Virus record (IMG/VR): IMGVR_UViG_3300025674_000014
Direction: 5' to 3' (one strand)
DNA from: a virus
Taxonomy: Duplodnaviria; Caudoviricetes
Length of the DNA: 64,000 nt
Shown here: positions 16,222-63,853 of the stretch, piece after piece
How positions within the stretch are numbered: position 1 is the stretch's first letter
Layout: every line of letters starts with the position of its first letter
Position numbers and translations under genes: made by a program
The notes under the pieces: generated by a model
Told to the model about the DNA's origin: nothing
What the model saw: only the letters and a program-made list of their open reading frames with translations
Databases searched by the model: none

Positions 16222-16227
16222 TTATAT

Positions 16228-21721: not shown

Positions 21722-24325
21722 TTAGTTTTCTCTTCTATCTTCAGCTTTGTAATATTCAAACCTTTCATGATAGCAAGGAGTTGCTAATAGAATTGCAGGT
21801 TTAATATGTCCCTTAACTGTTTGCTGATAAATGTATGACATCCAAGTTTGTTCAAACGGTGCTGCCCATTTCTCTTCAAGGAACATCTTCTTATTACCTT
21901 CTTTTGAAACTAACTGAGGCCAGTTACAATAGAATACCTCTCCATCAATGTAAGGTAAACCGTCCATATTGTAAATATGATTGTATTTAACTAATGGAGC
22001 GTTAGGATCTAAACCGTTAGCCGGTAAATATTTCTTTTCTGGCCATACTTGCTCTCTCAGTTCTTGAGGTACATTATACCAAGACCATTGAGTACGATTA
22101 TCTCCAAAGAATTCAGTAAAGCAGAATTTAAGCAAATCAAATCCATGCTTTTCCATAATCTTGTGAGTCTTATCAAACAAGTTAGGTATATATCTTCTAA
22201 AACCACTTTCACAATAACCAACTTCTTTATCGTGAATATACATATCATCTTCAAGAAAGATATAATAATCACCGTCTGTCTTGTCAAAGTGTTCGGCTAC
22301 CCACTGTCTACCTCCGCAAATACCGATATTATCTCGTTTATGCTCTGTAAAATTATAAAGATCAAAAATAGCTTCATAATCAGCATCAGTAGATCTATCA
22401 GTCGAATTATTCAATACAACTTTTTCACATTTCTCAAACCATTTATCAGTAGTTGACCAATTTTCACAAAGTCTTAAGAATTGAGCAGGTGAATTATAAG
22501 TGATCACGTAAAGATATGTCTTAAGATCTTCAATAGGTCTAGTTTTTCTCGTCGTGATTAACTCAACGGTATCATTTTTTAGATGCTCAAAGAAACATTC
22601 AAACAGACCGTCATCTCTGATCATGGTTCTGTCTACTAAATCTTCATGTTTGTAAGTCAAAATAGTGAATACACTCTCTTCTGTACCCATTTGACCTTCA
22701 TCTAATGAATTTTTTAAGTAATCGTAGTAAAGACTATTAACTTTTGGTATATAATCCTTATGACCACCAAATACACCTGCTCTTGCAACGCGGGTTGTCT
22801 TATCTACATTACAATATGTGCGTAATCTTTCATGATCAAAGCCATGAATTTCATAATTTTCGTACGGAAAACATACGAATAAAAATTTCTGCAAGTAATG
22901 ATGAATTTTATTAATAACTTTATCGTGAGTAAAGTACCCTTGATGAACTGTACTAGTAATACCACCATCAACCCATAAGAAATAATCGGTATTAAATGGA
23001 TTTGAAATAGCAGCATCATTGAGTAAAAACATCTTACTCATTACCATTGGATTATACAGTTCTAACCCAGCCTGAGTACTCTCTGCGAGCCAGGATGCTT
23101 TGTTATACCAGTCTGGGTTAGAACGAATCTCTTGTACTTTGTCGTAGAATTCAAACCAAGTTTTAAACTCCTCAGCTTCTTTAATAATAACACTAGTGTT
23201 ATCCCTACTTCTACGCTCCCATACGAAATCTTCATGTGCTTTTCCGATAAAAATAATCATCGGAGCATCAGTTTTTAATAGTTCATCAAATTTATCTAGA
23301 TAATGTTGGAATGGTCTATTAAACCCTCCCTCCATTTCTCCACGTTTAAGGTCCCAAATACCAGTCACTATAGTCGTTTTAGAAGGTCCTTCGTTAGATA
23401 TTGTTCTCTTTGGTTCTTCTTTGTCTTCTACTATAGTTCCATCTTGGAAATAATCACCTTCTTCAACGTTTTCAGGTACATCTATAAAGTTACCATCGGC
23501 ATCGTTTCTAAAACCATTACCTTCAACGCAAAGGCCAAGTTTTTCAACCTCAACCCAACGTCTATTTGTCTTAAATTTCTCAATCTCACTACTATGGAAA
23601 GCCATAATATCACAACCTTCCTGATTAGTAAGAATGTAACCTGCAGCAATTAACCTATCAAATAGTTTAACTAACTTATCTTCTTCATTATTGAATAACT
23701 CAAACTTAATTACTTTAGGTAAGTATTTTTCTAAAGTAAATCCTAAAAACACTTCATAATCAAAACCTTCTGTATCAACTGTACAGAAATCAATCTTTTC
23801 AATACCGTGTTTTTCTAATAGTGAATCAGCAGTAACTACATCTACTTCAATAAGATCACCGTGTTCTTCAAGTAATGCTTTAGTTTCAGCATCTGTTTCA
23901 AAGCCATTTTTAGGTGGTATAAAAGAACCCATACCTACAATAGCTTCATGTAAACCATCTGATTCAATCTTACTCCATGGAATGTAACACATTAGCTCTT
24001 TTCGTTCAGTATCTGAAACAGCTACATTCTCCGTAATACAACCTTCTGGTAATTCAGTGGTTACATACTTTGTAAGTGCTTTAAATGCATCAGGTATTGG
24101 TTCAACGAACATACCTCTCCATTTATATGTTACCATATATGCAGAAATAGTATCATGAAAAGTACCATCACAAGAACCAATCGATAGATTGAACATAGGG
24201 TCGCCTTTTCGACCATAGTGATGCAAAATTATATCATAAATTCTCTCGACTTGCCAGGTGTTGAATTTTGTTGAAATTCTACCTTCATAGTCATCCCCTA
24301 CTATATGATTGTGAATATTACTCAT
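21722..24325 (-). CDS. three-domain glycan-processing protein: FkbM methyltransferase + HtrL/YibB (WlaTC)-like + GT-A-like domain
   Basis: N-terminus IGSCDG...FVEP...IDFCTVDTEGFDYEV (FkbM); middle TTIVTGIWDL...YLDKFDELL...MSKMFLL...FLWVDGGI...GTEES (HtrL-like); C-terminus NIGICGGRQWVAEHF...YYIFLEDD (GT-A-like). Confidence 0.75.
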   Translation of the reverse strand: MSNIHNHIVGDDYEGRISTKFNTWQVERIYDIILHHYGRKGDPMFNLSIGSCDGTFHDTISAYMVTYKWRGMFVEPIPDAFKALTKYVTTELPEGCITENVAVSDTERKELMCYIPWSKIESDGLHEAIVGMGSFIPPKNGFETDAETKALLEEHGDLIEVDVVTADSLLEKHGIEKIDFCTVDTEGFDYEVFLGFTLEKYLPKVIKFELFNNEEDKLVKLFDRLIAAGYILTNQEGCDIMAFHSSEIEKFKTNRRWVEVEKLGLCVEGNGFRNDADGNFIDVPENVEEGDYFQDGTIVEDKEEPKRTISNEGPSKTTIVTGIWDLKRGEMEGGFNRPFQHYLDKFDELLKTDAPMIIFIGKAHEDFVWERRSRDNTSVIIKEAEEFKTWFEFYDKVQEIRSNPDWYNKASWLAESTQAGLELYNPMVMSKMFLLNDAAISNPFNTDYFLWVDGGITSTVHQGYFTHDKVINKIHHYLQKFLFVCFPYENYEIHGFDHERLRTYCNVDKTTRVARAGVFGGHKDYIPKVNSLYYDYLKNSLDEGQMGTEESVFTILTYKHEDLVDRTMIRDDGLFECFFEHLKNDTVELITTRKTRPIEDLKTYLYVITYNSPAQFLRLCENWSTTDKWFEKCEKVVLNNSTDRSTDADYEAIFDLYNFTEHKRDNIGICGGRQWVAEHFDKTDGDYYIFLEDDMYIHDKEVGYCESGFRRYIPNLFDKTHKIMEKHGFDLLKFCFTEFFGDNRTQWSWYNVPQELREQVWPEKKYLPANGLDPNAPLVKYNHIYNMDGLPYIDGEVFYCNWPQLVSKEGNKKMFLEEKWAAPFEQTWMSYIYQQTVKGHIKPAILLATPCYHERFEYYKAEDRREN

Positions 24326-25688: not shown

Positions 25689-27215
25689 TTACTTTGGATC
25701 AACAATATCTTTAGTAATCTTATCTAACCAACCATTATTATGGGTGTAAGGTATTACTGTATATGATGCAGGTGTTTCAGGGCATGTCAATGACATAGGA
25801 AATCTAGCTGCATATGGATCTTGTCTCTCGTCGTAAATTTCTTGAATCTTACCAATGTCGTAATCTTCTCTCTTTAGCTCCTTACCTTCTGCATCATGCA
25901 CACCTACATACCAAAACTCAGTATCTTCATAAGTCTCAGGTAACTCATCCCAAGGGACAAAGAAGTCTATACACCAGTTCTTACACCATTCTGTTTGATC
26001 ATGAGGTGTAATATTTTCATAACTAGGGTTTTTATAATCTCTACAATCAGGAGAAATAGCTCTTAGTTTAAAATTAATACCAGCGTACTCTTCATATTGT
26101 TCTACTGTTCTAACTTTACCAAACCCATATTCATCCCCGAAGTTAATTTGATTAGGATCTTCACCATCCATACCAAACAGAATACGGTTACGCTTATGAC
26201 ATTGATCATTTACTTCATACCAGTCATATTCTCTACCGCTTGATCTATTATTATCATCCCAATGGTGAGGTCTACCTTTTCTTGTATATTCATGATATGC
26301 AATAATCTTATGAGGATGGAATAAATCATACCCGTGAGTAAAAGCTCTTACAGCAATACTAATCTCTTCACCGTGGAAGTAATAATTAGGGTCGTGAGTT
26401 ACTTCTTTACACATCTTACCAGATGCAAAAGCAAAGTGAGCTGAATAAAATCTACTTGGAATAGGTTCTCTTTGTTCGTCTCTTTCCATTGACGTGGGTA
26501 AAAAGAACATTGCACCTTCTGGAATGAATCTATCGATAATCATCTTCCAAGGATCTACTTCAAAACCATTAGCAAGCGTACGTTCACCTGTACCGTCTTT
26601 AAATTCTAACCAAGGTTTATAGCTGGTTATGTAACCGGTAAATAGTGGTTTTTCGTGACCTTTATCTTGCATGTAATAATACATGCTTTTCATTTCTGAA
26701 TCCCAGTGATCTACAAATCTATGATGTGAATCAATTGCTAAAGTAAATTCATCTTCACACCATAAGTGTTGTAATGAATGTCTAGCCCAGCATGTACCGT
26801 GACCTCTTCTAGCATCTACTTTAATTACTTGAAATCTATCATCATTTTGCATGAATTCGAACATGTCCTTATCATATTCATCATCTGGGTGCCATTGCCA
26901 GCAGATACCAAATCGTAAATTTTCAGGGTTATCAGCCCTTTTAATCATATCTTTAATAGTTGGAATGAGTTCAGGGTCTCTATATGCAGCAATCTGAACA
27001 AAAATACGTTGATTACCTTTTCTATTTGGATCTACACTTTCATGGTAATATGTACCTACTTTATCCCAGGATTCATTTGTTTGTTGTTTACCTGGGGTGC
27101 TAATTTGTAATGAAGGGGTATCTTGTTGTGAATGTTGTACTTCTACAACTTTTTCACTACTAGTACTTTTTACAGACTTTAATCTATTTTTCCTAACAAT
27201 CTTAATACCTGGCAT
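25689..27215 (-). CDS. second GT60-like polypeptide GlcNAc-transferase paralog
   Basis: IFVQIAAYRDPEL, HGTCWAR, AIDSHHRF, FYSAHFAF, YYFHGEEISIAVRAFTHGYDLFHP; about 68-aa N-terminal extension. Confidence 0.85.
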   Translation of the reverse strand: MPGIKIVRKNRLKSVKSTSSEKVVEVQHSQQDTPSLQISTPGKQQTNESWDKVGTYYHESVDPNRKGNQRIFVQIAAYRDPELIPTIKDMIKRADNPENLRFGICWQWHPDDEYDKDMFEFMQNDDRFQVIKVDARRGHGTCWARHSLQHLWCEDEFTLAIDSHHRFVDHWDSEMKSMYYYMQDKGHEKPLFTGYITSYKPWLEFKDGTGERTLANGFEVDPWKMIIDRFIPEGAMFFLPTSMERDEQREPIPSRFYSAHFAFASGKMCKEVTHDPNYYFHGEEISIAVRAFTHGYDLFHPHKIIAYHEYTRKGRPHHWDDNNRSSGREYDWYEVNDQCHKRNRILFGMDGEDPNQINFGDEYGFGKVRTVEQYEEYAGINFKLRAISPDCRDYKNPSYENITPHDQTEWCKNWCIDFFVPWDELPETYEDTEFWYVGVHDAEGKELKREDYDIGKIQEIYDERQDPYAARFPMSLTCPETPASYTVIPYTHNNGWLDKITKDIVDPK

Positions 27216-27249: not shown

Positions 27250-30200
27250 TTAGTTAATACATTTTACTTTATAATCAAACCATTCTTGATGTAAACGAAC
27301 ACAGTTAATGCAAGCTGAATTATGAATACAAGCAGCATTATTAACATTAAGAAATGCAATTCCTACAAATTGTCTTGTTGAACCCCATAAATTTAAACAA
27401 GAATCATTAAAATCTAGCTGTTTACAAACGGTTACTACTTGATTAGTAAAAGTATTTGGCATGTTTGCGCCTATACTACACCATATTATTCCGTTACCAA
27501 AGCTAAATAAATAACATACCGGGTAATTACTACTAGTGTTATTTCCATAAGATACATTTATTTTATAATATAAACAATCAATCATACTCATACAGTAATT
27601 AGAACTACAAACTGAACATTTTACCATACATGCCTTATTTGCCATCATAGGAATGCAATTTGTACAACACATTGTATAATAGGCATACCACCCACCATCA
27701 CTTCCCGGAAGACAAATATTATGTACATATTGACCTCCGCATGTAAAACCACATGTGGTGTTTCTACAACAATAAGCTAATGAATAATTTTCACACCCTA
27801 CATTTGCCAATATGTATTTACAACCGCAACCCCAACATAAACTAGTTGAATCATAACCGGCACAAAGATATTTGTCACACATATTATCTATATGATAATT
27901 ACTCCACCAATTAGATTGCCATGCATAAATACATCTACCTGAATATCCGCAATCATAAAGATTAGCTAATGCACATAAATTACATGTACTACAAGCGGTA
28001 TAAATAGCAGGCATCCAAGAATCATGTTGAGTATACCCAGACGGTTTTGGAGCACACCAACACCAATATAGAGGTGTACCTGAAGCTCGACAATTGTTTA
28101 CGTAATAACTATAAGTAAAACAATTACTACTATCTGCCAACATATTTGTAGTTGCAAATGTCATAGCAGGGTTATATACTTCACAAGAATAACAAAATTT
28201 TATACATTGACCGGTAGTTAAAGTAGAATAATCTACAGAACATGTTATAGTGCTATATGAAGATACGTTAGAGTTAATAGTAGGGTAGTTATATGTAGCT
28301 TTAAATGTACCAGCGCTACAAAAATAAGGGTCACACCCATATGTAATAAACCCGCCAAATGGAAAACATATTTTCCATGTCCATCCAAAAACACAAGAAG
28401 TGCTTATACATCTAACTTTATACCCGTAACCACTGGTTGGTGTACCCCAGGGTAATATATAGGTGTTAGAAGTATTACCATAATTGTCTGTTCTACTTGT
28501 CCACCAAGGGTGCGCTTTTGCTTGATTAAAGCATCTAAATCCTTGCGTACCTGTACATTTTGTTTCGGGCATTAAATTAGTACAAGCATAACTACCGCTG
28601 GTATAATTAGCACAGGTATAGCTAGTTATTGTTGGACAAGTCGCGCCTGAACATATTAAATCAGTTACACTTGAACATTCATTAGGCACGGGAGGTGTGC
28701 TCGTAACTGTGGGTGTTCTTGTCTGTGTAGGTGTATGTGTACTTGTTCTGGTCGGCGTTCTCGTCTTGGATTCTGTAATAGACTTCGTTCTGGTTGGTGT
28801 TCTTGTCTTCGTTCTAGTACGTGTAGGTGTATAGGTTGGTGTTCTTGTACGCGTAGGTGTTCTTGTTCTCGTGTTAGTAGGCGTTTGTGTACGCGTACGT
28901 GTGTAGGTTGGTGTTCTTGTACGTGTACGTGTACGTGTTTGGGTTGGTGTTCTCGTACGTGTACGTGAATGTGTAATAGATTTCGTTCTGGTTGGTGTTT
29001 GTGTACGTGTAGGTGTACATGTTCTCGTGCGTGTATAGGTTGGTGTTCTCGTACGTGTACGTGATTGTGTAATCGACTTCGTTCTGGTTGGTGTTCTCGT
29101 ACGTGTAGGTGTTTGTGTACGTGTACGTGTTTGGGTTGGTGTTCTCGTACGTGTACGTGATTGTGTAATCGACTTCGTTCTGGTTGGTGTTCTCGTACGT
29201 GTAGGCGTACATGTACGTGTTCTTGTTCTCGTACGTGTAGGCGACTGGGTTGGTGTTCTTGTACGTGTAGGTGTTTGTGTACGTGATCTTGTACGTGTAC
29301 GTGTACGTGTAGCTGATTGAGTTGGTGTTCTTGTACGTGTAGGTGTTTGTGTACGTGTTTGGGTTGGTGTGCGCGTTCTAGTAGGTGTTTGTGTACGTGT
29401 CTTAGTTCTTGTTTGCGTTCTCGTACGTGTATAGGTTGGTGTTCTTGTTCTCGTACGTGTATATGTAGGAGTTTGTGTACGTGTATTTGTTGGTGTACGC
29501 GTACGTGATGCTGTACGTGTCGGTGTTTGTGAACGAGTAGGTGTTTGTGTACGTGTACGTGTTGCTGATCTGGTCGGTGTGCGTGTACGTGTACGTGTCT
29601 GTGTAGGTGTTTGTGTACGTGTTTGTGTTCTCGTTCTACTTGGTGTAGGTGTTTGTGTTATTGATTTAGTACGTGTAACGGTTGGTGTTCTTGTACGTGT
29701 TACAGCTGGTGTTGCTGTTCTGGTAGGTGTTCTTGTACGCGTAGCTGTCTGAGATTTTGTTCTCGTTTGCGTAGCTGTACGTGTATTTGTTGGTGTTTGC
29801 GTACGTGTCGGTGTTTGTGTACGTGTCTTAGTTCTTGTTCTCGTACTCGTAGCTGTTCTCGTATTAGTAGCTGTCTGCGTATTAGATTTTGTTCTAGTAG
29901 CTGTTGGCGTTTGTGTACGTGTCTTAGTAGCTGTTCTAGACTTAGTACGTGTTGGTGTTTGCGATCTCGTACGTGTATTGGTTGGTGTTTGCGTACGTGT
30001 AGCTGTTTGAGTGTTAGATTTCGTTCTCGTCTGGGTTGGTGTTCTTGTACGCGTACGTGTAGATGTTTGTGTTGCTGTACGTGTTGATGTTGGTGTTTGT
30101 GTTCTGGATCTTGTACGTGTACGTGTCGGTGTATTTGATCTCGTACGCGTACGTGTAGCAGATTGTGTAGGTGTTTGTGTACGTGTCTTAGTTGACGTAT

Positions 30201-33200: not shown

Positions 33201-33318
33201 TGGTGTAAGAAGAGCCACCAAGTATTAAATTAGCATATAACTTATTGCCTACAGGTAATCCTGAACGCTCTTTTTGCACTAATAACCAATTGCTTGAATC
33301 CCCCACATAAGTAAACAT
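27250..33318 (-). CDS. C-terminal segment of the giant mucin-like fibre protein (its frame is open back to ~33432)
   Basis: Begins mid-LamG domain, followed by a ~1400-aa (T-X)n stalk and a Cys-rich C-terminal region; the sequence upstream of the Met continues the homologous domain ([20 protein letters not shown]). Confidence 0.8.
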   Translation of the reverse strand: MFTYVGDSSNWLLVQKERSGLPVGNKLYANLILGGSSYTITMPTALTTSTGWFQFAITVDSSNMKMYFNADLEGTVSIPSSRNTSETLLSVGKSYGSVRDMNGEIAIVKVYNDALTENQIEASYSALRHRFDLPRLTPTRTRTQTPTQTATQTRTPTQTATETRTQTPTQTRTSTQTRTATNTRTRTRTQTPTNTRTRTQTPTRTRTQTPTNTRTRTQTPTSTRTASQTQTPTRTQTPTNTRTSTQTRTATNTSTRTRTQTPTNTRTRTQTPTQTRTRTRTRTQTPTRTATQTRTNTQTATQTRTQTPTNTRTATQTRTATQTRTATQTRTQTRTRTQTRTATQTRTSTQTPTQTRTNTQTRTNTQTRTATQSRTATSTVSRYPTPTQTRTSTQTRTSTQTRTNTQTATNTRTRTQTRTRTQTPTQTRTNTQTRTRTQTPTQTRTQTPTQTRTSTQTRTATQTRTKTNTQTSTNTRTRTQTPTQTRTQTPTHTRTRTQTRTRTQTPTNTQTRTRTQTPTSTQTGTQTRTPTFTRTPSQTDTPDVTRTRTPTQTRTPTQTATRTRTPTQTASRTATSTPTQTRTSSQTATQTATNTRTVTQTSTQTATNTRTSTQTRTATQTRTRTQTPTPTETRTRTQTPTNTSTRTRTQTPTNTRTNTQTRTRTQTPTATNTRTRTRTPTNTRTSTQTRTSTQTRTSTQTRTNTQTSTATVSRYPTPTQTRTQTPTQTATNTRTRTQTPTETRTQTPTNTRTRTQTPTNTKTSTSTRTQTPTNTATSTRTRTQTPTSTATQTATQTRSRTQTRTKSNTRTATQTRTSTKTSTQTSTRTPTQTKTNTQTATNTRTSTSTYTQTATNTRTSTPTYTQTPTSTRTNTQTRTETNTRTRTQTPTRTHTPTKTSTRTTTQTATNTKTRSSTPTRTRTETPTRTRTATQTRTSTRTATETVTRTRSQTPTNTKTATQTATQTRTQTPTNTRTNTVTKTKTSTQSRTSTRTRTQTPTRTRSQSPTRTQSPTRTRTRTRTETPTPTNTKTATQTATNTSTKTRTQTPTQSATRTRTRSNTPTRTRTRSRTQTPTSTRTATQTSTRTRTRTPTQTRTKSNTQTATRTQTPTNTRTRSQTPTRTKSRTATKTRTQTPTATRTKSNTQTATNTRTATSTRTRTKTRTQTPTRTQTPTNTRTATQTRTKSQTATRTRTPTRTATPAVTRTRTPTVTRTKSITQTPTPSRTRTQTRTQTPTQTRTRTRTPTRSATRTRTQTPTRSQTPTRTASRTRTPTNTRTQTPTYTRTRTRTPTYTRTRTQTRTKTRTQTPTRTRTPTQTRTQTPTRTRTPTQSATRTRTRTRSRTQTPTRTRTPTQSPTRTRTRTRTCTPTRTRTPTRTKSITQSRTRTRTPTQTRTRTQTPTRTRTPTRTKSITQSRTRTRTPTYTRTRTCTPTRTQTPTRTKSITHSRTRTRTPTQTRTRTRTRTPTYTRTRTQTPTNTRTRTPTRTRTPTYTPTRTRTKTRTPTRTKSITESKTRTPTRTSTHTPTQTRTPTVTSTPPVPNECSSVTDLICSGATCPTITSYTCANYTSGSYACTNLMPETKCTGTQGFRCFNQAKAHPWWTSRTDNYGNTSNTYILPWGTPTSGYGYKVRCISTSCVFGWTWKICFPFGGFITYGCDPYFCSAGTFKATYNYPTINSNVSSYSTITCSVDYSTLTTGQCIKFCYSCEVYNPAMTFATTNMLADSSNCFTYSYYVNNCRASGTPLYWCWCAPKPSGYTQHDSWMPAIYTACSTCNLCALANLYDCGYSGRCIYAWQSNWWSNYHIDNMCDKYLCAGYDSTSLCWGCGCKYILANVGCENYSLAYCCRNTTCGFTCGGQYVHNICLPGSDGGWYAYYTMCCTNCIPMMANKACMVKCSVCSSNYCMSMIDCLYYKINVSYGNNTSSNYPVCYLFSFGNGIIWCSIGANMPNTFTNQVVTVCKQLDFNDSCLNLWGSTRQFVGIAFLNVNNAACIHNSACINCVRLHQEWFDYKVKCIN
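28690..32910 (-). repeat. (Thr-X)n low-complexity coding stalk, approx. bounds
   Basis: Thr/Ser at every second residue; 6-nt periodic DNA, GT-rich on the + strand. Confidence 0.9.
28942..29229. repeat. three tandem 96-bp coding repeat units
   Basis: A 72-bp identical stretch at 29038-29109 and 29134-29205 (period 96), plus a diverged copy from 28942; encodes TPTRTKSITQSRTRTRTPT. Confidence 0.85.
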
Positions 33319-33407
33319 TACTTGAGTTTCATTTGATGTAAAAGAACTATCATCAAAATAAACCCATGAAATAATTGTAAAACTATCATTTAAAACAGGT
33401 AACGTAT

Positions 33408-57400: not shown

Positions 57401-57473
57401 TCGTGCTACTAACATTTAGCCTATTTTCTTCGATAAACTGTAATATTTGCCCGGAAAACGTGATTAAGCCCAT
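33408..57473 (-). CDS. giant virion fibre/adhesin-like protein (8021 aa; ~10,074 aa if joined to 27250-33318)
   Basis: Uninterrupted 24-kb ORF preceded by TAAATA; alternates (T-X)n stalks with many LamG/ConA-like domains (LLLHMNG...FTDSS...WYHxA) and two Gly-rich domains; no signal peptide is evident. Confidence 0.9.
47690..50460 (-). repeat. (Thr-X)n low-complexity coding stalk, approx. bounds
   Basis: About 920 codons of T-X alternation between LamG blocks. Confidence 0.9.
52590..56865 (-). repeat. (Thr-X)n low-complexity coding stalk, approx. bounds
   Basis: About 1400 codons of T-X alternation following the N-terminal domain. Confidence 0.9.
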
Positions 57474-57482
57474 ACGTAAATA

Positions 57483-57488
57483 TATTTA
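57483..57488 (-). promoter_or_regulatory. TAAATA late-promoter motif before the giant gene
   Basis: Ends 9 nt before the ATG at 57473. Confidence 0.5.
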
Positions 57489-57519
57489 ATCACCTACGTA
57501 TAAGGGAAATAAAAGAATC

Positions 57520-57801
57520 TTAAGAAAAATTAATTTTTTCTGACTTAAGTTTAAACTTAAACTCTTTCTTGTATTTATTAGAAAAGTATGTAATTTCTTT
57601 ACCTAGATATTCAACATAGTTTACATTTATAACAGCTAGAGGCTCGTCTTTATAATAGACATATGTAGTGGATAAACACAACTCTCCTTCAAGAGGTATT
57701 GCCGGTAAGATAACATAATCATCTTTACCTGCTTGAAATGAAACTGCATTATCTTGAGCATGTGGCTCACCACCTGTTCCTATTAATTTAAATGTATCCA
57801 T
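57520..57801 (-). CDS. small stand-alone paralog of the C-terminal domain of the upstream mucin-like protein
   Basis: LIGTGGEPHAQDNAVSFQ...KINFS aligns with LTGTGSAPHPAANGVTFQ...NVNFST; 1-nt stop/start overlap with the upstream gene. Confidence 0.75.
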   Translation of the reverse strand: MDTFKLIGTGGEPHAQDNAVSFQAGKDDYVILPAIPLEGELCLSTTYVYYKDEPLAVINVNYVEYLGKEITYFSNKYKKEFKFKLKSEKINFS

Positions 57802-60443
57802 TATGTAGAAAAGTTAACGTTACCATCAACAAAGTTACCTAAGAAAGGTCCATCTCCGTTAGCATACTCAACTCTGAATTGGTCTCCTGTATATCCATTG
57901 TAAGAGTAACTCACAACTGATCTAATACTACCATCAACGTAGATATACATAGTAGCAAAAGCTGGGCCACCGGATAAATCAGTATCAAACTCAAATATGT
58001 CATTTGCAGCAGATTGGAATGTAACACCGTTAGCTGCAGGGTGAGGTGCTGATCCGGTACCTGTTAAACTGTTATTAAAGGTAAGAGGAGGTGTTGATGT
58101 TTGAGTTGGTGTGTAAGTAGGTGTTCTAGATTGGGTAGGTGTTTGGGTAGATGTTCTTGTATTAGTCGGTGTAGCTGTAGGGGTTTGTGTCCTTGTTCTT
58201 GTTTGTGTAGGTGTTTGAGATCTAGTAGAGGTTTGTGTCGGACTTTGAGTAGCGGTTTGCGATCTAGTTTGGGTAGGTGTTCCTGTCTGTGAAGATGTTC
58301 TTGTTTGGGTTGGTGTTTGAGATTTTGTTCTTGTATTAGTAGGTGTTTGTGTTCTAGATTGTGTTGGTGTTTGTGTCGGTGATTGAGTAGGTGTATTTGT
58401 ATTTGTTTGTGTTGGTGTTTGTGTTAAAGTTTGTGTTGGTGTACGAGTTTGTGTTGATGTTCTAGTAGTAGTTGGTGTTCTTGTTCTAGTTGCACCTGGT
58501 GTATCAGTTTGACTTGGTGTTCTTGTGAAAGTTGCTGTTCTTGTGTTAGTTGGTGTGGTAGTTGATGTATTAGTAGGTGTTTGAGTTGCGGTAGAAGATT
58601 GAGTAGCTGTACGGGTAACAGTTGGTGACGATGTTCTAGTAGATGTTTGTGTGTTTGTTCTAGAAGAAGTTACTGTAGGTGTAGCTGTTGAAGTCTTTGA
58701 TTTTGTTCTAGTTACAGTGGGTGTTACAGTATTAGTAGCTGTTTTAGTTTGTGTGGGGGTTTGAGATCTAGTAGGTGTTTGTGTTCTTGTAGATGTTCGT
58801 GTTGGTGTTTGAGTTGATGTTTGAGTAGGGGTTTCTGTTCTTGTTTGAGTAGCTGTTCTAGTATTAGTTGGTGTATTGGTAGCTGTACGAGTAGGAGAAG
58901 CTGTAGCTTCTGGTGTTAAAGTTGATGTAGATGTTACCGTTCTAGTATTAGTAGCGGTTTGAGAAGCTGTTCTAGTGGCTGTTTTTGTATTAGTAGGTGT
59001 ATTTGTCGGTGTTCTACTATTAGTGGGTGTTCTAGTTCTCGTAACGTCAGGTGTATCGGTTTGCGAAGGCGTTCTAGTGAAAGTAGCTGTTCTTGTATTA
59101 GTTGGTGTGGATGAATTTGTAGCTGTTCTAGTAGTAGTTTGTGTTGGAGATTGAGTTGCAGTTTGTGTAGCGGTTCGAGAAGATGTTCTCGTGTTAGTTG
59201 GGGTTACTCCAGGTGTACCTGTTCTGGTGGATGTTTGTGTAGGGGTTTGTGTAGAAGTCTGAGTTCTTGACCTTGTTTGTGTAGGAGATTGGGTAGGTGT
59301 TTGAGTTCTTGTAGTTGTAGCAGAACGAGTAGGTGTAACTGTATTAGTTGGTGTAGATGTTCTTGTAGAAGTCCTTGTAGCAGAAGCTGTTTGAGTTGGT
59401 GTAATAGTTGACGTTCTAGTTTGGGTAACACCGGGTGTTGCTGATCTAGTTGACGTTCTCGTTTGTGTTGGTGTGATTGTTGATGTAGCGGTATTAGTAG
59501 CGGTTGTTGTAGCTGAACTAGTTGCTGTTTTAGTATTTGTTATAGTGGCTGTTACGGTTGGTGTAGATGTTGACGTTCTAGTAGCCGTAGCAGTTTGAGT
59601 TGGTGTTTGTGTGGGTGTAGTTTGAGGTGTACCAGTTGAAGTAACTGTCTGCGTAGGTGTTTGAGAAGATGTCTTAGTGTTAGTAGCAGTAGATGTTTTT
59701 GTTCTGGTAGTTGTTTGTGTCGGGGTTTGAGTAGCAGTAGCTGCTGGTGTAGCTTGAGGTGTATTTGATGATGTTGCAGTAGGGGTAACTGTTGCAGTTC
59801 TTGTAGGTGTTTGAGTAGCGGTTTGTGTTCTAGATCTTGTAGCTGTTTGAGTAGCTGTTTGTGTTCTCGTTCTAGTAGATGTTTGCGTGGGGGATACTTG
59901 AGGAGATGCAGTAGGTGTAGCAGTAGATGTAGAAGTTGTTGTTCTAGTTGGTGTTGCAGTATTACTTGCTGTTCTAGTTGGTGTTTGTGTTGAAGTTACT
60001 GCAGGGGACGCTGTTGGTGTGGCAGTAGATGTAGAAGTTGATGTTCTAGTTGGTGTTTGAGTTGTAGATTGAGTACTTGTTCTAGTTACCGTCTGGGTAG
60101 ATGTACGGGTATTAGTTGGTGTTGGTGTTGGTGCAGATCCTTGAGTAGGTGAAACTGAAACAGTCTTTGTAGGGGTTTGTGTTCTTGTTCTAGTATAAGT
60201 CGGGGTAGCTGTTCTTGTAGCTGTTGGTGTTACTACTGGATTTGGTTCATTATCAACCGAAACCATACCAACATGCATACCTAACGGTTGCAAGCCAGAT
60301 CTTCTAGAAGATCTGTTAGCTTGCGGTCGGGGATCCAATATACAGGAGGGAATAGCTCGCCTACTATTTAAAGGATTATTAGGACAAATATTGGCTATAT
60401 TATTTTGGTTACCACTTCCAAATTGATTTGATCTACTCGCCAC
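57801..60443 (-). CDS. mucin-like Thr-rich virion protein (880 aa) with small C-terminal beta domain
   Basis: GTG start after AATAAATA; ~70-aa N-terminus, ~710-aa (T-X)n stalk and ~95-aa C-terminal domain. Confidence 0.85.
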   Translation of the reverse strand: MASRSNQFGSGNQNNIANICPNNPLNSRRAIPSCILDPRPQANRSSRRSGLQPLGMHVGMVSVDNEPNPVVTPTATRTATPTYTRTRTQTPTKTVSVSPTQGSAPTPTPTNTRTSTQTVTRTSTQSTTQTPTRTSTSTSTATPTASPAVTSTQTPTRTASNTATPTRTTTSTSTATPTASPQVSPTQTSTRTRTQTATQTATRSRTQTATQTPTRTATVTPTATSSNTPQATPAATATQTPTQTTTRTKTSTATNTKTSSQTPTQTVTSTGTPQTTPTQTPTQTATATRTSTSTPTVTATITNTKTATSSATTTATNTATSTITPTQTRTSTRSATPGVTQTRTSTITPTQTASATRTSTRTSTPTNTVTPTRSATTTRTQTPTQSPTQTRSRTQTSTQTPTQTSTRTGTPGVTPTNTRTSSRTATQTATQSPTQTTTRTATNSSTPTNTRTATFTRTPSQTDTPDVTRTRTPTNSRTPTNTPTNTKTATRTASQTATNTRTVTSTSTLTPEATASPTRTATNTPTNTRTATQTRTETPTQTSTQTPTRTSTRTQTPTRSQTPTQTKTATNTVTPTVTRTKSKTSTATPTVTSSRTNTQTSTRTSSPTVTRTATQSSTATQTPTNTSTTTPTNTRTATFTRTPSQTDTPGATRTRTPTTTRTSTQTRTPTQTLTQTPTQTNTNTPTQSPTQTPTQSRTQTPTNTRTKSQTPTQTRTSSQTGTPTQTRSQTATQSPTQTSTRSQTPTQTRTRTQTPTATPTNTRTSTQTPTQSRTPTYTPTQTSTPPLTFNNSLTGTGSAPHPAANGVTFQSAANDIFEFDTDLSGGPAFATMYIYVDGSIRSVVSYSYNGYTGDQFRVEYANGDGPFLGNFVDGNVNFST

Positions 60444-60450
60444 AATTATA

Positions 60451-60458: not shown

Positions 60459-60467
60459 ATTATTGGC

Positions 60468-61382
60468 TTATAGTTTGAGAGAAGTAATGATTTTATCAAC
60501 ATTAAAGATCTCTCTTTCATCAGTATAAGGACATTCATGAGCGTGAGCAGCTAAATCATAATCAAAATAATAACTGTTCATCAAATGAGATTTGCCTTTA
60601 GGATCATTAGCCTTAATATTGTGATGAAGTTTATAACCGAACATCTCAGGGTGAGTACCAATCCAAAGTACGGTAGAAGGTAAACCAAAAGCTGCTGCAG
60701 CATGCTGCATGCATGAGTCAATTAGAAGTCTTTTATCCGCTGCTTTTAGAATAGAAAACAATTCAATATTACTCATTTGTGCATTTACTACTTCACAACC
60801 TTGAACATGAGGAGAGTTAGGTCTGCAAACCTGGTAAACGTGATAACCTTTATTGAGAGCAGCATTAGCTACCTCCGAAGCAACACTATAAGGCATATCG
60901 CGAGTCCAAGCATATATATGTTGCTGTTGGTCTTCACCGAACGGACCACCGTTGGTTTGCAGAACTAAAATTGGTCTTTGATCTTGATTAAGCCATCTTT
61001 GATGAGCCTGTTGACCATACATGTTAAGAGGAATGTTAGGTCTATGTTTAAGTTCATTAAACTCTAACCCACACATTGTAAACCACGTCTGCATAAGAGG
61101 TGTCTTCTGCATAATGTGAGTAGATTCATAATAAGGCTCTCTTCTAAGAACAATAGTATCTTTATTGTTAATAAATGTTTCGTAAAAATAAGGTGTACCG
61201 TGAGGGTAAACTCGTTCAATATCTGGGTTATGAAAGAAAATCTCTGGCCAGGAAGCAGTTACAATTATTTTTCTATCAGGATATTTTTCCTTAAGAGGTT
61301 TTATAATAGCAGTAGAAGCAACGTTCTTACCTAAACCACCTTCTACATGTAATACAACATATTTTTCTTTTGACTCGCTCAT
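60468..61382 (-). CDS. GT-B fold glycosyltransferase, GT9 (heptosyltransferase)-like
   Basis: VLHVEGGLGKNVASTAIIKPLKEKYPDRKIIV, ILVLQTNGG...RDMP, LLIDSCMQHAAAAFGLPSTVLWIGT.P..FGY. Confidence 0.75.
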   Translation of the reverse strand: MSESKEKYVVLHVEGGLGKNVASTAIIKPLKEKYPDRKIIVTASWPEIFFHNPDIERVYPHGTPYFYETFINNKDTIVLRREPYYESTHIMQKTPLMQTWFTMCGLEFNELKHRPNIPLNMYGQQAHQRWLNQDQRPILVLQTNGGPFGEDQQQHIYAWTRDMPYSVASEVANAALNKGYHVYQVCRPNSPHVQGCEVVNAQMSNIELFSILKAADKRLLIDSCMQHAAAAFGLPSTVLWIGTHPEMFGYKLHHNIKANDPKGKSHLMNSYYFDYDLAAHAHECPYTDEREIFNVDKIITSLKL

Positions 61383-61411
61383 TAATTTAATTTAGCGAGT
61401 ATCTATATAAA

Positions 61412-63853
61412 TCAAGTTATATCACTCCAAACATTTACTCTTTGAATAGTACCATCAGCACCTAATTGATTATCTATAACGTCTTGAACTTCATCAAGAA
61501 ATTCTGTCTGAGTGTAATTAGGACCATTAGGATAACCGCCGCCGCCATATAATAATGAAGCAAGTAAAATATCATTATTATAAAGTAAGAATATAGGACT
61601 ACCACTATCACCAGACGATACACCGTTAGGAAAAAATAACGTTCTTGCAGGTAATAAAGAACTAGCTGTACTTAAATTTTGATATTTATTTATATAAAAT
61701 TGATAAGCCCCGGGGCAAGTAGTTCTACACGCCCAAGGATAAATTTTTTCATTTAAAGCTATAGCATATGCATTATCTAAACAAACAGTTCCAGGAGCCG
61801 GGGTAAAGGATCTACCACCACCTACAATTACTGGAAACGAACAAGCTGGTACGATTTCCGAACCATTTAAATTTTTGAATTCAGCAAATTTATATATTTT
61901 TATATCTGGATCGGTAATAGGGTTTGATAATTTACCTACAGCAACATCAGTATAATAATTACCTAATACTGAACTTTGGTTAAAATAACAACCTTGTAAT
62001 CCACTACTGTTACAAGCCCAGCATGCTACTTGAGCAGATACTCTATCCCCATTAGGTTTAATAAAATTAATACAATAACCAGTAGTTAATCCCTGATATT
62101 GAGAATCAGATTGTATATTATTATGAGGTGTATTATGAGCAGCTACTATAAAGTGTCTATCAGTAATCATTACATAATTACTAAATTCTGTATGTAATGC
62201 GCAAGAACCACTATCATAAAAATACGGATTACCACAACATGTTACATTAGAAAACCCTTGACCAGTTAAACATGAATAGCACGCTGCGTACCTAACACCT
62301 GATACATCAACTATATTTCTACAACTATACCACCAAGCACTGGTATTTACATTACCGCCGCTGCAATTAATATAATTGTAAGTAAATGAATTTGCAGCAG
62401 TTATTGAAGTAATACTGTTAACACCTAATCTACAAAATTCATAATTAGTGCAATTTAAAAAGTTTCTAAAACATTGACAATAATAACACGCTGTTGGTGT
62501 TCTTGTTTGAGTCGGTGTTTGTGTTCTTGTTCTAGTATAAGTTGGTGTCCTGGTTTGAGTACGTGTTCTTGTAGGGGTTGGTGTACATGTTGATGTTGCT
62601 CCGCTTGTGCAAGTTTGAGTATTTGTTCTAGTTTGTGTAGGTGTTTGTGTTGATGTTCTAGTATATGTAGGTGTATTGGTTGGTGTTCTGGTATTTGTAC
62701 AAGTTGGGGTAGGGGTACCGTATTTAGATACCGTTGATGTTTGCGTGGCTGTTCTTGTAGCTGTTCTTGTTTGAGTAGGTGTTCTAGTTGGTGTACCTGT
62801 TTGAGAAGCTGTTCTTGTATTGGTGGGTGTTGGTGTAGGTGTATCTGCAGAAGTACATGTGATTGTTGGTGATACCGATCTCGTTCTTGTTTGAGTTGGT
62901 GATAAAGTAATTGATTTGGTTATAGTAGGGGTTTGTGTAGGGGAACTACCGCAAGTAACAGAAGGTGTTAATGTTCTTGTTCTAGTATTAGTTGCAGTAC
63001 GGGTTCTAGTTGGTGAACTTGTTCTACTATTAGTAGGTGTTTGGGTTGAGGTAGGGGTGGGGGTAGCGTAACTTGAAACCGTGCGTGTCGGGGTCAATGT
63101 ACGAGATTGAGTTAAAGTTCGTGTTGGTGTTGATATATTTGTACCCGAACACGTTTGGGTTGGTGTATTAGATCTTGTTTTAGTATTTGTGGCGGTTTGT
63201 GAGCTTGTTTTAGTTTGGGTTGATGTTTTGGTATTAGTTAAAGTCGATGTTGATGTTCTAGTGCAAGTTACATTTGGTGTATCCGTTCTTGTAGCTGTTT
63301 GAGTAGGGGTTTGTGTTCTTGTTTGAGTTGGTGTTCTTGATCTTGTATATGTTGTTGTTGGTGTTCTACTATTAGTTGGTGTTGATGTAGGTGTAGATGT
63401 TGAAGTTCTGGTATCTGTAGGTGTATAAGTATGTGTTCTCGTACAAGTAGGTGTTTGAGTAGGTGTTCTAGAACAGGTTACATTAGGATTAGTTACTAAA
63501 GGATCAGTAGCGGTAGGGGTAGATGTTTTTGTTCTCGATTTAGTATTTGTAGGTGTAGCTGTAACAGCTAAACAACTCGAACCAAAAGCTGTTGGTGTTC
63601 TTGTTCTAGTACCTGTAAAAGTAGCAGTATTTGATCTAGTTACTGTTTGAGATGGAGTGGTGGTTGGGCATGATGTAACTGTTTGTGTTGGTGTGTTAGA
63701 TCTTGTAGGGGTTAAAGTCGCGGTTTGCGTAGGTGTCCTAGTTTGAGTTACATACGGGTCGGCCCCTTGACGCATTTTACCCCAGTTGCTCGCTTGAGCT
63801 GGACCTGGGTTTGCGCTTCTAATTAAATCTCTTACTGTTGGTAAAGTAGCCAC
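61412..63853 (-). CDS. mucin-like Thr-rich protein with C-terminal trypsin-like serine protease domain
   Basis: ~420-aa (T-X)n stalk, Cys-rich linker, then HFIVAAH (His), TDVAVGKL (Asp) and SGDSGSPIF (Ser) catalytic-triad motifs. Confidence 0.8.
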   Translation of the reverse strand: MATLPTVRDLIRSANPGPAQASNWGKMRQGADPYVTQTRTPTQTATLTPTRSNTPTQTVTSCPTTTPSQTVTRSNTATFTGTRTRTPTAFGSSCLAVTATPTNTKSRTKTSTPTATDPLVTNPNVTCSRTPTQTPTCTRTHTYTPTDTRTSTSTPTSTPTNSRTPTTTYTRSRTPTQTRTQTPTQTATRTDTPNVTCTRTSTSTLTNTKTSTQTKTSSQTATNTKTRSNTPTQTCSGTNISTPTRTLTQSRTLTPTRTVSSYATPTPTSTQTPTNSRTSSPTRTRTATNTRTRTLTPSVTCGSSPTQTPTITKSITLSPTQTRTRSVSPTITCTSADTPTPTPTNTRTASQTGTPTRTPTQTRTATRTATQTSTVSKYGTPTPTCTNTRTPTNTPTYTRTSTQTPTQTRTNTQTCTSGATSTCTPTPTRTRTQTRTPTYTRTRTQTPTQTRTPTACYYCQCFRNFLNCTNYEFCRLGVNSITSITAANSFTYNYINCSGGNVNTSAWWYSCRNIVDVSGVRYAACYSCLTGQGFSNVTCCGNPYFYDSGSCALHTEFSNYVMITDRHFIVAAHNTPHNNIQSDSQYQGLTTGYCINFIKPNGDRVSAQVACWACNSSGLQGCYFNQSSVLGNYYTDVAVGKLSNPITDPDIKIYKFAEFKNLNGSEIVPACSFPVIVGGGRSFTPAPGTVCLDNAYAIALNEKIYPWACRTTCPGAYQFYINKYQNLSTASSLLPARTLFFPNGVSSGDSGSPIFLLYNNDILLASLLYGGGGYPNGPNYTQTEFLDEVQDVIDNQLGADGTIQRVNVWSDIT

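Follow-up and report, generated by a model that had tools for sequence, protein, structure and literature searches.

Mucin-type O-glycosylation is regarded as a eukaryotic chemistry, to which the SRRP adhesins of Gram-positive bacteria offer a parallel. Several viruses glycosylate their own virion proteins, as in the case of the capsid and tail-tube C-termini of mycobacteriophages, Vp54 of the chlorovirus PBCV-1 and the fibrils of mimivirus. The characterised glycosyltransferases (GTs) of family GT60 require Mn2+ and transfer alpha-GlcNAc onto protein hydroxyls, including Thr residues of the Thr-rich mucins of Trypanosoma cruzi (PMC3769586). In SRRPs, dedicated enzymes encoded beside their substrate attach O-GlcNAc to the stalk within the cytoplasm, and further GTs then extend the glycan (PMC5578698, PMC7661464).

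We analysed a stretch of 64,000 nt from an uncultured virus (IMG/VR record IMGVR_UViG_3300025674_000014), called the window in the following. Judged from its proteins, it belongs to a distant T4-like myovirus, a member of a large uncultured aquatic clade. Consistent with a T4-like (Straboviridae-type) assignment, Pfam profiles identified a gp23-type major capsid protein (PF07068, E 5.8e-89) and a gp21-type prohead protease (PF03420, E 1.9e-35), and there were matches to a scaffold (PF25623, weak) and a gp5-type hub (PF04717). The identity of this gp23 to the gp23 of cultured phages is only 31-34%. DNA-modification genes, e.g. QueF, are located elsewhere in the window. The fibre and enzyme ORFs all lie on the minus strand, and their coordinates bear out the initial annotation, which had described a co-oriented 42-kb block (21722-63853) of Thr-rich fibres interleaved with GTs.

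Table 1 Features of the fibre and glycosyltransferase region, in window coordinates
Feature	Coordinates	Strand	Details
TTAAATAT copy, head-tail adaptor-like gene	14344-14351		
TTAAATAT copy, 1110-aa gene	21700-21707		
867-aa fusion	21722..24325	-	FkbM aa 49-225; HtrL/YibB-type GT aa 316-565; probable GT-A/GT2-like domain aa ~575-867
GT60a	24318..25670	-	450-aa PF11397 glycosyltransferase; Pfam E 1.9e-69, 235 bits
D95-S96-H97 motif of GT60a	25380-25388		
GT60b	25689..27215	-	508-aa PF11397 glycosyltransferase; Pfam E 3.7e-65, 221 bits
2022-aa fibre protein	27250..33318	-	Thr 35.6%; (T-X)n tract aa 130-1550 (28669-32931), 249 Arg
TATATA run with -1 frame change	33426..33431	-	between 8021- and 2022-aa ORFs
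8021-aa giant fibre protein	33408..57473	-	Thr 23.8%; nine (T-X)n tracts, 3,215 aa together; largest aa 197-1637 (52563-56885) and aa 2331-3273 (47655-50483)
21-aa island, one copy	56223..56288	-	conserved peptide
TTAAATAT, late-promoter-like motif	57482..57489	-	9 nt ahead of the ATG of the giant gene
93-aa ORF	57520..57801	-	separate ORF, paralogous to the C-terminal domain of the 880-aa protein (translations compared by eye); gene call in related loci L043-L046
880-aa fibre protein	57801..60443	-	Thr 36.9%; (T-X)n tract aa 65-799 (58047-60251)
304-aa GT-B glycosyltransferase	60468..61382	-	GT9 (heptosyltransferase) fold; between two fibre genes
813-aa fibre protein	61412..63853	-	Thr 24.7%; (T-X)n tract aa 29-461 (62471-63769)
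TTAAATAT copies, 813-aa gene	63862-63869, 63881-63888		

Strictly alternating (Thr-X)n tracts occur in four ORFs of 813, 880, 8021 and 2022 aa and sum up to 5,804 residues, exceeding the "well over 4000" estimated initially. The tract residues are ~45% Thr, and the X positions are mainly filled by R (20%), Q (19%), P (15%), S (15%), A (10.5%) and N (6%). The tracts have a net charge of ~+660 and, in contrast to classical mucins, are unusually rich in Arg. As in mucin- and SRRP-type substrates, they are long, of low complexity and dense in Ser/Thr acceptor sites. A fifth TX protein of 1420 aa is encoded just outside the window end. All five share the same layout: a short N-terminus is followed by a (Thr-X)n stalk, 430 to >1,400 residues long, and the head behind it is variable.

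These heads had been described as lectins, which holds for one part of them. The giant ORF contains ~17 LamG_3 lectin-like stretches in addition to two Gly_rich_2 domains and Cys-rich domains; its N-terminal domain had no match among cultured phages. The C-terminal head of the 813-aa protein, however, is Cys-rich, contains AAHN...GDSGSP motifs and resembles a protease of the trypsin/S1 type, and it led to serine protease/trypsin clusters in a protein-cluster atlas. Other heads are Cys-rich and of no matched fold, such as that of the 2022-aa protein (aa 1551-2022, without family match), which carries a LamG remnant at aa 1-129. The 880-aa protein terminates in a small C-terminal domain of ~90 aa. 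A conserved 21-aa island occurs in seven copies in the window: four in the giant protein (aa 397, 925, 1425 and 2759), one in the 2022-aa protein (aa 532) and two in the 880-aa protein (aa 455 and 639). The peptide is identical in these copies, with 70-90% DNA identity in the core and background identity in the flanks.

Low-complexity DNA with a strand skew is difficult to assemble, the 2022-aa protein has no record elsewhere and a frame break separates the two largest ORFs, so that one might regard the Thr-X ORFs as an artefact of mis-assembly or as non-coding repeats. We consider this highly improbable. Exact repeats of ≥80 nt are absent from the 34.7 kb of TX coding sequence, the Thr codons as well as the X residues vary, and a frame of 24 kb remains open, with real Pfam domains in frame between the tracts. 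Moreover, the 813- and 880-aa proteins were recovered at 99.9-100% identity in four independent assemblies, and homologous TX ORFs exist in dozens of viral contigs. Reading through the TATATA run at the frame break joins two halves into one LamG domain, which is colinear to residues 2140-2215 within the giant protein. The 8021- and 2022-aa ORFs probably constitute one gene of ~10,070 aa, with the 2022-aa part at the C-terminus.

Upstream of the fibre genes we noticed the late-promoter-like motif TTAAATAT. All five copies in the window (5/5) are on the coding strand and ≤30 nt away from a start codon, against 10.2 copies expected by chance anywhere in the window. That fibre genes and the gene for a head-tail adaptor-like protein have it in common suggests co-regulation. 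From gene position and this shared motif only, we infer that the fibres would be attached to the virion. Only 18-34 nt lie between the fibre and GT60 genes, and the GT60 pair follows directly behind the fibres without a promoter-like motif of its own.

A search with the PF11397 profile (cut-off 21 bits) matched both of the enzymes initially proposed as GT60-like (Table 1). In an alignment of 25 sequences, the 60-odd invariant columns are all retained in GT60a and GT60b. Residues Y13-R14, D95-S96-H97, G206-E207-E208, H224 and H226 show no variation across 24-25 sequences, both window paralogues included. We take the D-S-H of GT60a to be the counterpart of the Mn-binding DxH in GT27. GT60b has an N-terminal extension of ~60 aa and keeps all invariant columns of the catalytic core, whereas GT60a consists of a GT-A domain (aa 1-~330) and a C-terminal beta-sandwich (aa ~343-433). 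We compared the AlphaFold model of GT60a (pLDDT 89.4) with reviewed proteins and with the PDB. The top reviewed fold match was Dictyostelium Gnt1 (Q8T1C6; E 7.4e-25, 24% identity, TM 0.59/0.62), followed by GT27 ppGalNAc-Ts only, and the best 46 PDB matches were all GT27 ppGalNAc-Ts. By sequence, both window enzymes are therefore members of the CAZy GT60 / PF11397 family, and the predicted model places GT60a there by its fold as well. Hydropathy analysis revealed no TM segment or signal peptide in any of the GT enzymes, and the GT60 enzymes are predicted to be soluble.

Two further enzymes are encoded in the block. The 304-aa protein, annotated initially as GT9-like, has this fold according to its AlphaFold model (pLDDT 90.6): the best 30 PDB matches in Foldseek were all GT9 (WaaF, WaaC, Veillonella GT9, TibC) at E 1e-10 to 6e-7, with WaaF at E 1e-10, Veillonella GT9 at TM 0.66 and TibC at TM 0.62-0.68. 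Sequence profiles did not place it in GT9, as there was no Pfam match and TIGR02201 reached only E 0.0065 (15.5 bits versus a cut-off of 170). Some of its relatives bear the name heptosyltransferase or contain PF01075, a domain present in only 15% of one related atlas cluster. Because the fold of the protein O-heptosyltransferase TibC is as close as that of the LPS heptosyltransferases, the 304-aa enzyme may act as another initiator instead of as an extender. The 867-aa protein is the FkbM-HtrL-GT fusion that had been proposed, with PF05050 at 62.8 bits (cut-off 22.7), TIGR01444 at 49.8 bits (cut-off 37.7), PF09612 at 44.2 bits (cut-off 24.1) and a C-terminal domain that is probably GT-A/GT2-like. 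Its HtrL_YibB domain scores under the YibB equivalog cut-off and represents a family member, not an orthologue.

The families of these accessory enzymes raise the question of other targets. HtrL and GT9 enzymes are chiefly familiar from LPS core loci, a weak PHROG match (E 3e-5) links the C-terminus of the 867-aa protein to a T4 HMC-glucosyltransferase family, and the window contains other DNA-modification genes such as QueF. The GTs could hence act on host envelope glycans or LPS (superinfection exclusion, receptor masking) or on phage DNA, leaving the stalks as unglycosylated, PT-linker-like spacers and reducing the adjacency of the genes to a shared accessory or hypervariable region. Such a role appears unlikely to us: the nearest characterised GT60 relatives are exclusively protein O-glycosyltransferases, the enzymes are predicted to be soluble, and the GT9 fold also includes the protein heptosyltransferase TibC.

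The distribution of the genes bears on the same question. Among 20 records of one phage clade chosen by gp23 alone, a small and fragmentary sample in which the GT60-positive records tend to be larger, TX12 tracts occurred in 5/6 GT60-positive versus 2/14 GT60-negative records (one-sided Fisher p ~0.007). An independent distribution of GT60 and Thr-rich fibres, which had been named beforehand as an outcome speaking against the idea, was hence not seen in this sample. For records of ≥60 kb, the numbers were 5/5 versus 0/4. One complete genome (G087) combines GT60 with 108 TX hits, and a complete 230-kb genome of the same clade (G086) lacks GT60 and has 0 TX hits. TX12 was absent from 16/39 GT60 records, all 16 being fragments of ≤45% completeness, and TX tracts were found in 5/5 GT60 records of ≥70% completeness. 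In IMG/VR, GT60 was present in 10/43 TX16-bearing records, compared to 4/50,697 cultured phage records. Several complete phage genomes possess shorter TX16 tracts without GT60; therefore, TX tracts do not depend on GT60, a point in favour of targets other than the stalks.

At the level of synteny, GT60 is directly preceded by a co-oriented ORF of the TX or Ser/Thr/Pro-rich kind in at least 14 loci that have diverged to 47-78% identity, although in one lineage ~150 kb separate the TX genes from GT60. This tracking within one clade and the direct adjacency in many diverged lineages argue against host glycans or DNA as targets. The heads of the GT60-adjacent fibres vary by lineage (LamG, DUF5122 propeller, DUF285), while stalk and GT60 are constant. 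A candidate initiating GT is thus linked to and co-distributed with its candidate substrate, as in mucin/SRRP-type systems. The HtrL-type GT was detected in 9/10 GT60-positive versus 0/33 GT60-negative TX records, and a homologue of the 867-aa protein occurs ≤10 kb from GT60 in 26/40 loci. The GT9-like gene was found in 0/40 related GT60 loci. The conserved cassette hence comprises GT60 and the HtrL-type GT. The initial interpretation is thus supported in part: its core, initiators encoded together with their own substrates, is backed by the data, whereas the roles given to the single enzymes have to be revised. In another lineage, the cassette also includes HAD/nucleotidyltransferase genes and a TylF-type methyltransferase.

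The neighbourhoods further allow for the view that the cassette glycosylates heads, capsid or tail proteins of the phage, with the (T-X)n stalks at most bystanders. Two GT60 records of ~75% completeness contain merely 1-2 TX hits, and their GT60 lies beside moderately Ser/Thr/Pro-rich ORFs (L015-L017); in addition, the best fold match, Gnt1, modifies one hydroxyproline in a globular protein and not a repeat. We judge this view to be quite unlikely, because the Thr-rich tract is the common denominator of the GT60 neighbours, whose heads differ. Furthermore, the TX load is highest in the two lineages with tandem GT60 genes (326-384 hits in partial and ~1,800 in near-complete records, versus ≤240 in single-copy records), and the complete clade genome without GT60 makes capsid and tail yet lacks TX tracts.

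A cultured phage, XacN1, offers a point of reference. It has only two GTs, one GT60 (47% identical) and one GT9, and its large proteins adjoining the tail genes contain TX tracts. XacN1 virions have at least two glycoproteins stained by PAS (Schiff) (PMC5852040). The paper regards the action of phage GTs on DNA or host O-antigen as the classical cases, which would suit a target outside the virion; it does not assign the PAS bands to proteins, name ORF334 as GT60 or mention the Thr-X tracts (PMC5852040). The missing protein assignment is also compatible with a modification of other phage proteins, whereas the presence of virion glycoproteins in a phage both of whose GTs fall into these families speaks against host glycans or DNA.

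Taken together, we favour, with a probability of about 0.7, the reading that the phage encodes a system for the O-glycosylation of its own fibre proteins within the host cytoplasm, because of the GT60 family and fold, the co-occurrence within the clade and the adjacency, the varying heads on a constant stalk, and XacN1. Gene content, enzyme families and folds, co-occurrence and synteny are observed here; for donor sugar, acceptor, enzyme order, virion attachment and fibre function we infer the following steps. The co-directional gene array would be transcribed late in infection, yielding five stalk-and-head fibres. The two soluble GT60 paralogues would attach a HexNAc (most probably alpha-GlcNAc, with UDP-GlcNAc of the host as donor) to the Thr hydroxyls of the stalks by a mechanism that is presumably metal-dependent via the DxH motif, as in the eukaryotic GT60 and GT27 enzymes. 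The HtrL-type and GT2-like domains could then lengthen the glycan and the fused FkbM domain methylate it, while the GT9-fold enzyme may contribute one more sugar, placed on the glycan or, TibC-like, straight on the protein. The products would be extended, protease-resistant, brush-like stalks that keep heads with binding or enzymatic functions at a large distance from the particle; with 0.25-0.34 nm for each residue, a tract of 1,400 residues would span ~350-480 nm.

A wider reading that joins all these elements is speculative, and we propose it only tentatively. Here, the aquatic T4-like clade and unrelated jumbo phages (XacN1) would build cationic, glycosylated (Thr-X)n "viral mucin" tentacles of hundreds of nm to >1 micrometre in length. 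GT60 might be processive, with the beta-sandwich in the role of the GT27 lectin domain, and docking or processing might take place at the 21-aa island. The heads, of lectin, propeller, LRR-like or protease type, would be exchangeable and would enlarge the capture radius far beyond the tail. To our knowledge, such a tentacle-based capture of hosts or particles has not been described for any phage.

If fibre glycosylation is correct, mucin-type protein O-glycosylation extends to bacteriophages, and a function could be assigned to the GT60/PF11397 genes common in aquatic viral metagenomes, for which we counted >7,900 relatives at E 1e-10 or better. It would also explain the recurrent giant Thr-rich ORFs of large phage genomes. 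Phage particles might then bear glycan-coated appendages much longer than the virion, which would matter for adsorption kinetics, for sticking to mucus and particles, for withstanding proteases and grazing, and for the way phages look in cryo-ET. Compact, soluble and cytoplasm-active enzymes would become available to make densely O-glycosylated polypeptides in bacteria. The question is directly testable because XacN1 is cultured and has the same enzymes, tracts and published virion glycoproteins.

Compared to the known members of CAZy GT60 (T. cruzi TcOGNT-2, Dictyostelium Gnt2 and Gnt1), the window enzymes have the same PF11397 and GT-A core with a DxH-type motif, appear soluble like Gnt1 and are paired with Thr-rich candidate acceptors as in T. 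cruzi mucins (PMC3769586). They differ in being encoded by a bacteriophage for the bacterial cytoplasm, in the presence of two paralogues, one with an extra C-terminal beta-sandwich, and in their presumed acceptors, Arg-rich, strictly alternating (T-X)n tracts of thousands of residues. Animal mucin-type O-glycosylation, whose GT27 ppGalNAc-Ts are the closest solved structures, follows the same logic of an initiating enzyme and dense Ser/Thr repeats that result in extended brush-like stalks, and the extra domain of the window enzyme occupies the position of the GT27 lectin domain. The CAZy family is another one, however, there is no Golgi, secretion or ricin-type lectin domain, and the phage tracts are cationic with Pro at only 15% of the X positions. 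The SRRPs (GspB, Fap1; GtfA/GtfB) are likewise built from a binding head and a stalk of (S/T-X)n dipeptide repeats, but use GT-B (GT4) initiators, Ser repeats and accessory Sec export to the cell wall, as opposed to a GT-A (GT60) initiator, Thr repeats, no export system and a presumably virion-bound product. The autotransporter heptosyltransferases TibC/AAH resemble the 304-aa enzyme in fold, and TibC acts on adhesin Ser in the cytoplasm; the identity is only 14-16%, WaaF, WaaC and Veillonella GT9 match equally well, and the 304-aa gene is outside the conserved GT60 cassette. In virus-encoded virion glycosylation, too, own GTs act on own structural proteins without the host secretory machinery, and XacN1, with PAS-positive virion proteins, has the same GT60 and GT9 pair (PMC5852040). 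GT60 and long (T-X)n stalks are not known to have been implicated in those systems. As far as can be judged from sequence, the system in the window is a real feature and likely a kind of virus-encoded virion glycosylation that is new in its use of GT60 and (T-X)n stalks.

By its gene content, the window belongs to a distant T4-like myovirus. Among its products are a gp23-type major capsid protein (PF07068, E-value 5.8e-89), a prohead protease of the gp21 type, a gp5-type hub and a scaffold protein; QueF is encoded as well. Identity of the capsid protein to its counterparts in cultured phages is only 31-34%, and a megablast search with the capsid region yielded no match among cultured phages. 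In IMG/VR the protein has at least 600 relatives, the best 80 of which share 70-89% identity, and complete genomes of this capsid-related group are 217-230 kb long. One window protein recurs unchanged on a 242.7-kb contig, and the window's DNA turned up in many metagenome studies of freshwater, ponds, estuaries and seawater. The QueF-like protein, a nitrile reductase of the 7-deazaguanine pathway, is encoded outside the fibre block, as is an additional glycosyltransferase (GT) of the GT2_5 type.

The co-oriented block of Thr-rich fibre and GT genes described in the initial annotation was borne out, and its tracts had been understated. Strictly alternating Thr-X tracts, (T-X)n or TX in the following, add up to 5,804 residues in the window, ~45% of them Thr. 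The minus-strand genes follow each other, in the direction of transcription, as 813-, 304-, 880-, 93-, 8021-, 2022-, 508-, 450- and 867-aa ORFs. The X positions are occupied by R (20%), Q (19%), P (15%), S (15%), A (10.5%) and N (6%). Hardly any acidic or hydrophobic residues occur, and the net charge is about +660. Just beyond the window end follows a fifth TX protein of 1420 aa with a Cys-rich head. There is no exact repeat of ≥80 nt in the 34.7 kb of coding sequence, and the 813- and 880-aa proteins are 99.9-100% identical across four independent assemblies. The tracts are therefore neither an assembly artefact nor a recent repeat expansion, and we regard it as highly improbable that the Thr-X ORFs are artefactual. 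An 825-aa variant of the 880-aa protein, considered as a tract-length polymorphism, was rejected as merely another start call.

Between its tracts, the 8021-aa giant protein carries ~17 LamG_3 (ConA-like lectin) stretches and two Gly_rich_2 domains. Its N-terminal 205 aa matched nothing in cultured phages, Pfam or NCBIfam, and neither the head of the 813-aa protein nor the Cys-rich one of the 2022-aa protein had a match in Pfam, PHROG or NCBIfam. The end of the 8021-aa ORF and the frame upstream of the ATG of the 2022-aa ORF together rebuild a LamG segment that is intact at residues 2140-2215. The two ORFs therefore very probably represent a single gene of ~10,070 aa with a -1 frame change in its course. 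No exact copy of the 2022-aa protein is on record elsewhere, the junction was not found in JGI metagenome contigs, and the junction region had no relatives in IMG/VR. The break may be a genuine mutation, an error of the assembly, the outcome of heterogeneous slippage at (TA)3 or a programmed frameshift.

Several further features of the fibre region were recorded. The head of the 813-aa fibre contains AAHN...GDSGSP motifs, and atlas features suggest trypsin/S1/S6-type serine proteases; this fibre would be a protease borne on a Thr-X stalk of ~430 residues. The 93-aa ORF stands alone as a paralogue of the ~90-aa domain at the C-terminus of the neighboring 880-aa fibre protein. A 21-aa island (Thr followed by 20 residues) occurs in eight copies in four proteins, with the peptide conserved and the DNA varying synonymously. 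It contains nearly all acidic residues and the sole Phe of the tracts and could be a docking, cleavage or hinge site. Within tracts, ACA makes up 61% of Thr codons compared to 35% in neighboring genes, and strand skews are extreme, with GC skew reaching 0.6 and AT skew falling to -0.6. The fifth fibre gene adjoins a gene for a 209-aa Mtd_N protein; Mtd is the major tropism determinant of Bordetella phage BPP-1, and the domain could be a sign of a diversity-generating system. Four Asn-rich ORFs (301, 322, 712 and 1110 aa; GC 25-29%) had no Pfam or PHROG match and are kept directly downstream of the GT cassette in the close relatives L003-L007. They may encode further fibre or tail components.

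Coordinates of the features discussed. L035 and L043 are related viral loci; all other positions refer to the window.
Feature	Position	Strand	Remark
GT60a (450 aa)	24318-25670	-	PF11397
GT60b (508 aa)	25689-27215	-	PF11397
2022-aa ORF	27250-33318	-	
8021-aa ORF (giant protein)	33408-57473	-	
-1 frame change at TATATA	33426-33431 (region 33380-33460)	-	inside LamG domain
TTAAATAT, five copies	14344-14351, 21700-21707, 57482-57489, 63862-63869, 63881-63888	-	motif scan
21-aa island	56223-56288 and six further window copies; L043 1420-aa ORF, aa 551	-	protein-level conservation
813-aa fibre head	61415-62470	-	protease-like motifs
93-aa ORF	57520-57801	-	
Tract with ACA bias (example)	28669-32931	-	
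Asn-rich ORFs	14348-21694	-	
Extra beta-sandwich of GT60a	24371-24644	-	aa ~343-433, model
QueF-like reductase	7992-8885	+	
GT2_5-type GT	2352-3032	+	
Mtd_N protein	L043:2189-2818	-	just past the window's high end
RuBisCO large-chain-like protein	L035:17563-18801	+	PF00016, E-value 1e-31

The two proteins proposed initially as GT60-like score far above the family cut-off in a PF11397 profile search. In an alignment with diverse relatives, both retain every invariant column, including Y-R-D, D-S-H and G-E-E. In the PDB, nothing meaningful matched GT60a, the 304-aa or the 867-aa protein by sequence or profile. The AlphaFold model of GT60a (pLDDT 89.4) found as its best reviewed match Dictyostelium Gnt1 (E-value 7.4e-25, 24% identity, TM ~0.6), the founding GT60 enzyme, followed only by GT27 polypeptide GalNAc-transferases (ppGalNAc-Ts); in the PDB, the top 46 fold matches are all ppGalNAc-Ts. 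The model has an extra C-terminal beta-sandwich which Gnt1 lacks. It is placed where GT27 enzymes have their lectin domain and, as a lead from the model, may be a substrate- or glycan-binding module. A complex prediction for GT60a, Mn and a 61-aa tract segment with the conserved 21-aa island scored 0.00 and was given no weight in either direction.

The 867-aa protein combines FkbM and HtrL/YibB domains, and its C-terminal part clusters with viral HtrL and GT2 proteins. For the 304-aa protein, the initial call as GT9-like held by fold but not by sequence: its confident GT-B model (pLDDT 90.6) has exclusively GT9 proteins, including LPS heptosyltransferases, among its 30 best solved matches, whereas its sequence lies below the GT9 profile cut-offs. 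TibC, which heptosylates an adhesin protein in the cytoplasm, matches this model with a TM equal to or better than that of the LPS heptosyltransferases. None of the four enzymes has a transmembrane or signal-like segment, which points to action in the cytoplasm, the site of phage protein synthesis.

Three features make co-expression of fibres and enzymes plausible: the genes all run in one direction, the GT genes follow their predecessors after just 18-34 nt, and a common motif, TTAAATAT, is present. All five window copies of this motif are on the coding strand, at most 30 nt upstream of a start codon, and it is depleted elsewhere (10.2 expected). It precedes two fibre genes, the 1110-aa gene and a head-tail adaptor-like gene, and may be this phage clade's variant of a late promoter. 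The T4 late promoter TATAAATA was not enriched in the window (6 copies versus 11 expected).

Independent distribution of GT60 and Thr-rich fibre genes, which would speak against the proposed system, was examined in five ways and not found, although all five rest on fragment records and small numbers, and larger records are likelier to hold both features. We identified 40 IMG/VR loci with GT60 relatives at 44-99% identity, and in at least 14 of them a Thr-rich ORF is co-oriented with GT60, mostly directly upstream. A (T-X)12 tract (TX12) is present in 23 of 39 GT60 records (reversed control pattern ~0) and at least one tract in all five that are ≥70% complete. One lineage without a TX gene near GT60 has ~1,800 TX matches elsewhere in its genome. 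Conversely, (T-X)16-coding tracts (TX16) occur in at least 120 viral contigs; PF11397 was detected in 10 of the 43 whole TX16 records searched compared to 4 of 50,697 cultured phage records. Shorter TX tracts occur in complete phage genomes without GT60. To control for clade, 20 records were picked by gp23 alone: TX12 was found in 5/6 GT60-positive versus 2/14 GT60-negative records (one-sided Fisher p ~0.007), and in 5/5 versus 0/4 when considering records ≥60 kb. Among these, the complete genome G087 has GT60 and 108 TX matches, one cluster directly upstream of the enzyme gene, whereas the complete genome G086 has neither. The heaviest TX loads belong to the two lineages with tandem GT60 copies, which is only suggestive of a link.

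The HtrL-type GT tracks GT60 almost perfectly: it is present in 9/10 GT60-positive and 0/33 GT60-negative TX records, in G087 and in none of four GT60-negative clade records (G085, G086, G088, G091), and lies within 10 kb of GT60 at 26/40 loci. A GT9-like gene was found at none of the 40 GT60 loci. Another GT60 phage lineage (L035) encodes a RuBisCO large-chain-like protein inside its glycosylation island, among HAD/nucleotidyltransferase and TylF-type methyltransferase genes. The heads of GT60-adjacent Thr-rich proteins vary, with LamG in the window and DUF5122 beta-propeller or DUF285 elsewhere, so the stalk is the shared element. This constancy argues against the GTs modifying other phage proteins while sparing the stalks, a reading we consider unlikely. 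Parts of the GT genes are matched at 90-99% identity by metatranscriptome contigs of four RNA libraries, but these were not counted as expression as DNA carry-over is possible.

The cultured jumbo phage XacN1 possesses a GT60 (ORF334, 47% identical) and a GT9 (ORF328), its only two glycosyltransferases according to its description (PMC5852040). At least two of its virion proteins, known as stained bands only, are periodic acid-Schiff positive, and phage enzymes were proposed to make these glycoproteins (PMC5852040). XacN1 has 122 (T-X)8 matches (control pattern 0), and its tract carriers include ORF369 and ORF370, adjoining a tail-sheath completion gene, and ORF384. Enzymes, tracts and virion glycoproteins are thus already together in one cultured phage, a link not made in print. 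The GTs could instead modify host glycans or DNA, with the stalks as bare linkers; we consider this unlikely in view of the fold relatives, the co-variation within the clade, the conserved adjacency and the XacN1 glycoproteins.

We therefore favor, with a probability of roughly 0.7, that the soluble GT60 paralogues start O-glycosylation of stalk threonines in the cytoplasm. An abundant host UDP-HexNAc would serve as sugar donor. Glycan extension would fall to the HtrL and GT2-like domains and methylation to FkbM, while the GT9-fold enzyme would attach a further sugar, either onto the glycan or straight onto the protein. Donor, linkage, step order, virion attachment and biological role of the fibres are what we infer. 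With 0.25-0.34 nm for each residue, a tract of 1,400 residues would span ~350-480 nm.

Glycosylation of virion proteins by virus-encoded enzymes is known from mycobacteriophages, PBCV-1 and mimivirus, and XacN1 provides a published hint. Our literature search on phages combined with GT60, Thr-X tracts or Thr-rich fibres found no description, and phages go unmentioned in a 2024 review of viral O-glycosylation. Characterized GT60 enzymes transfer alpha-GlcNAc onto Thr of Thr-rich mucins and require Mn2+ (PMC3769586). Among bacteria, the nearest parallel is found in the serine-rich repeat adhesins: enzymes encoded next to the adhesin gene glycosylate them in the cytoplasm (PMC5578698, PMC7661464).
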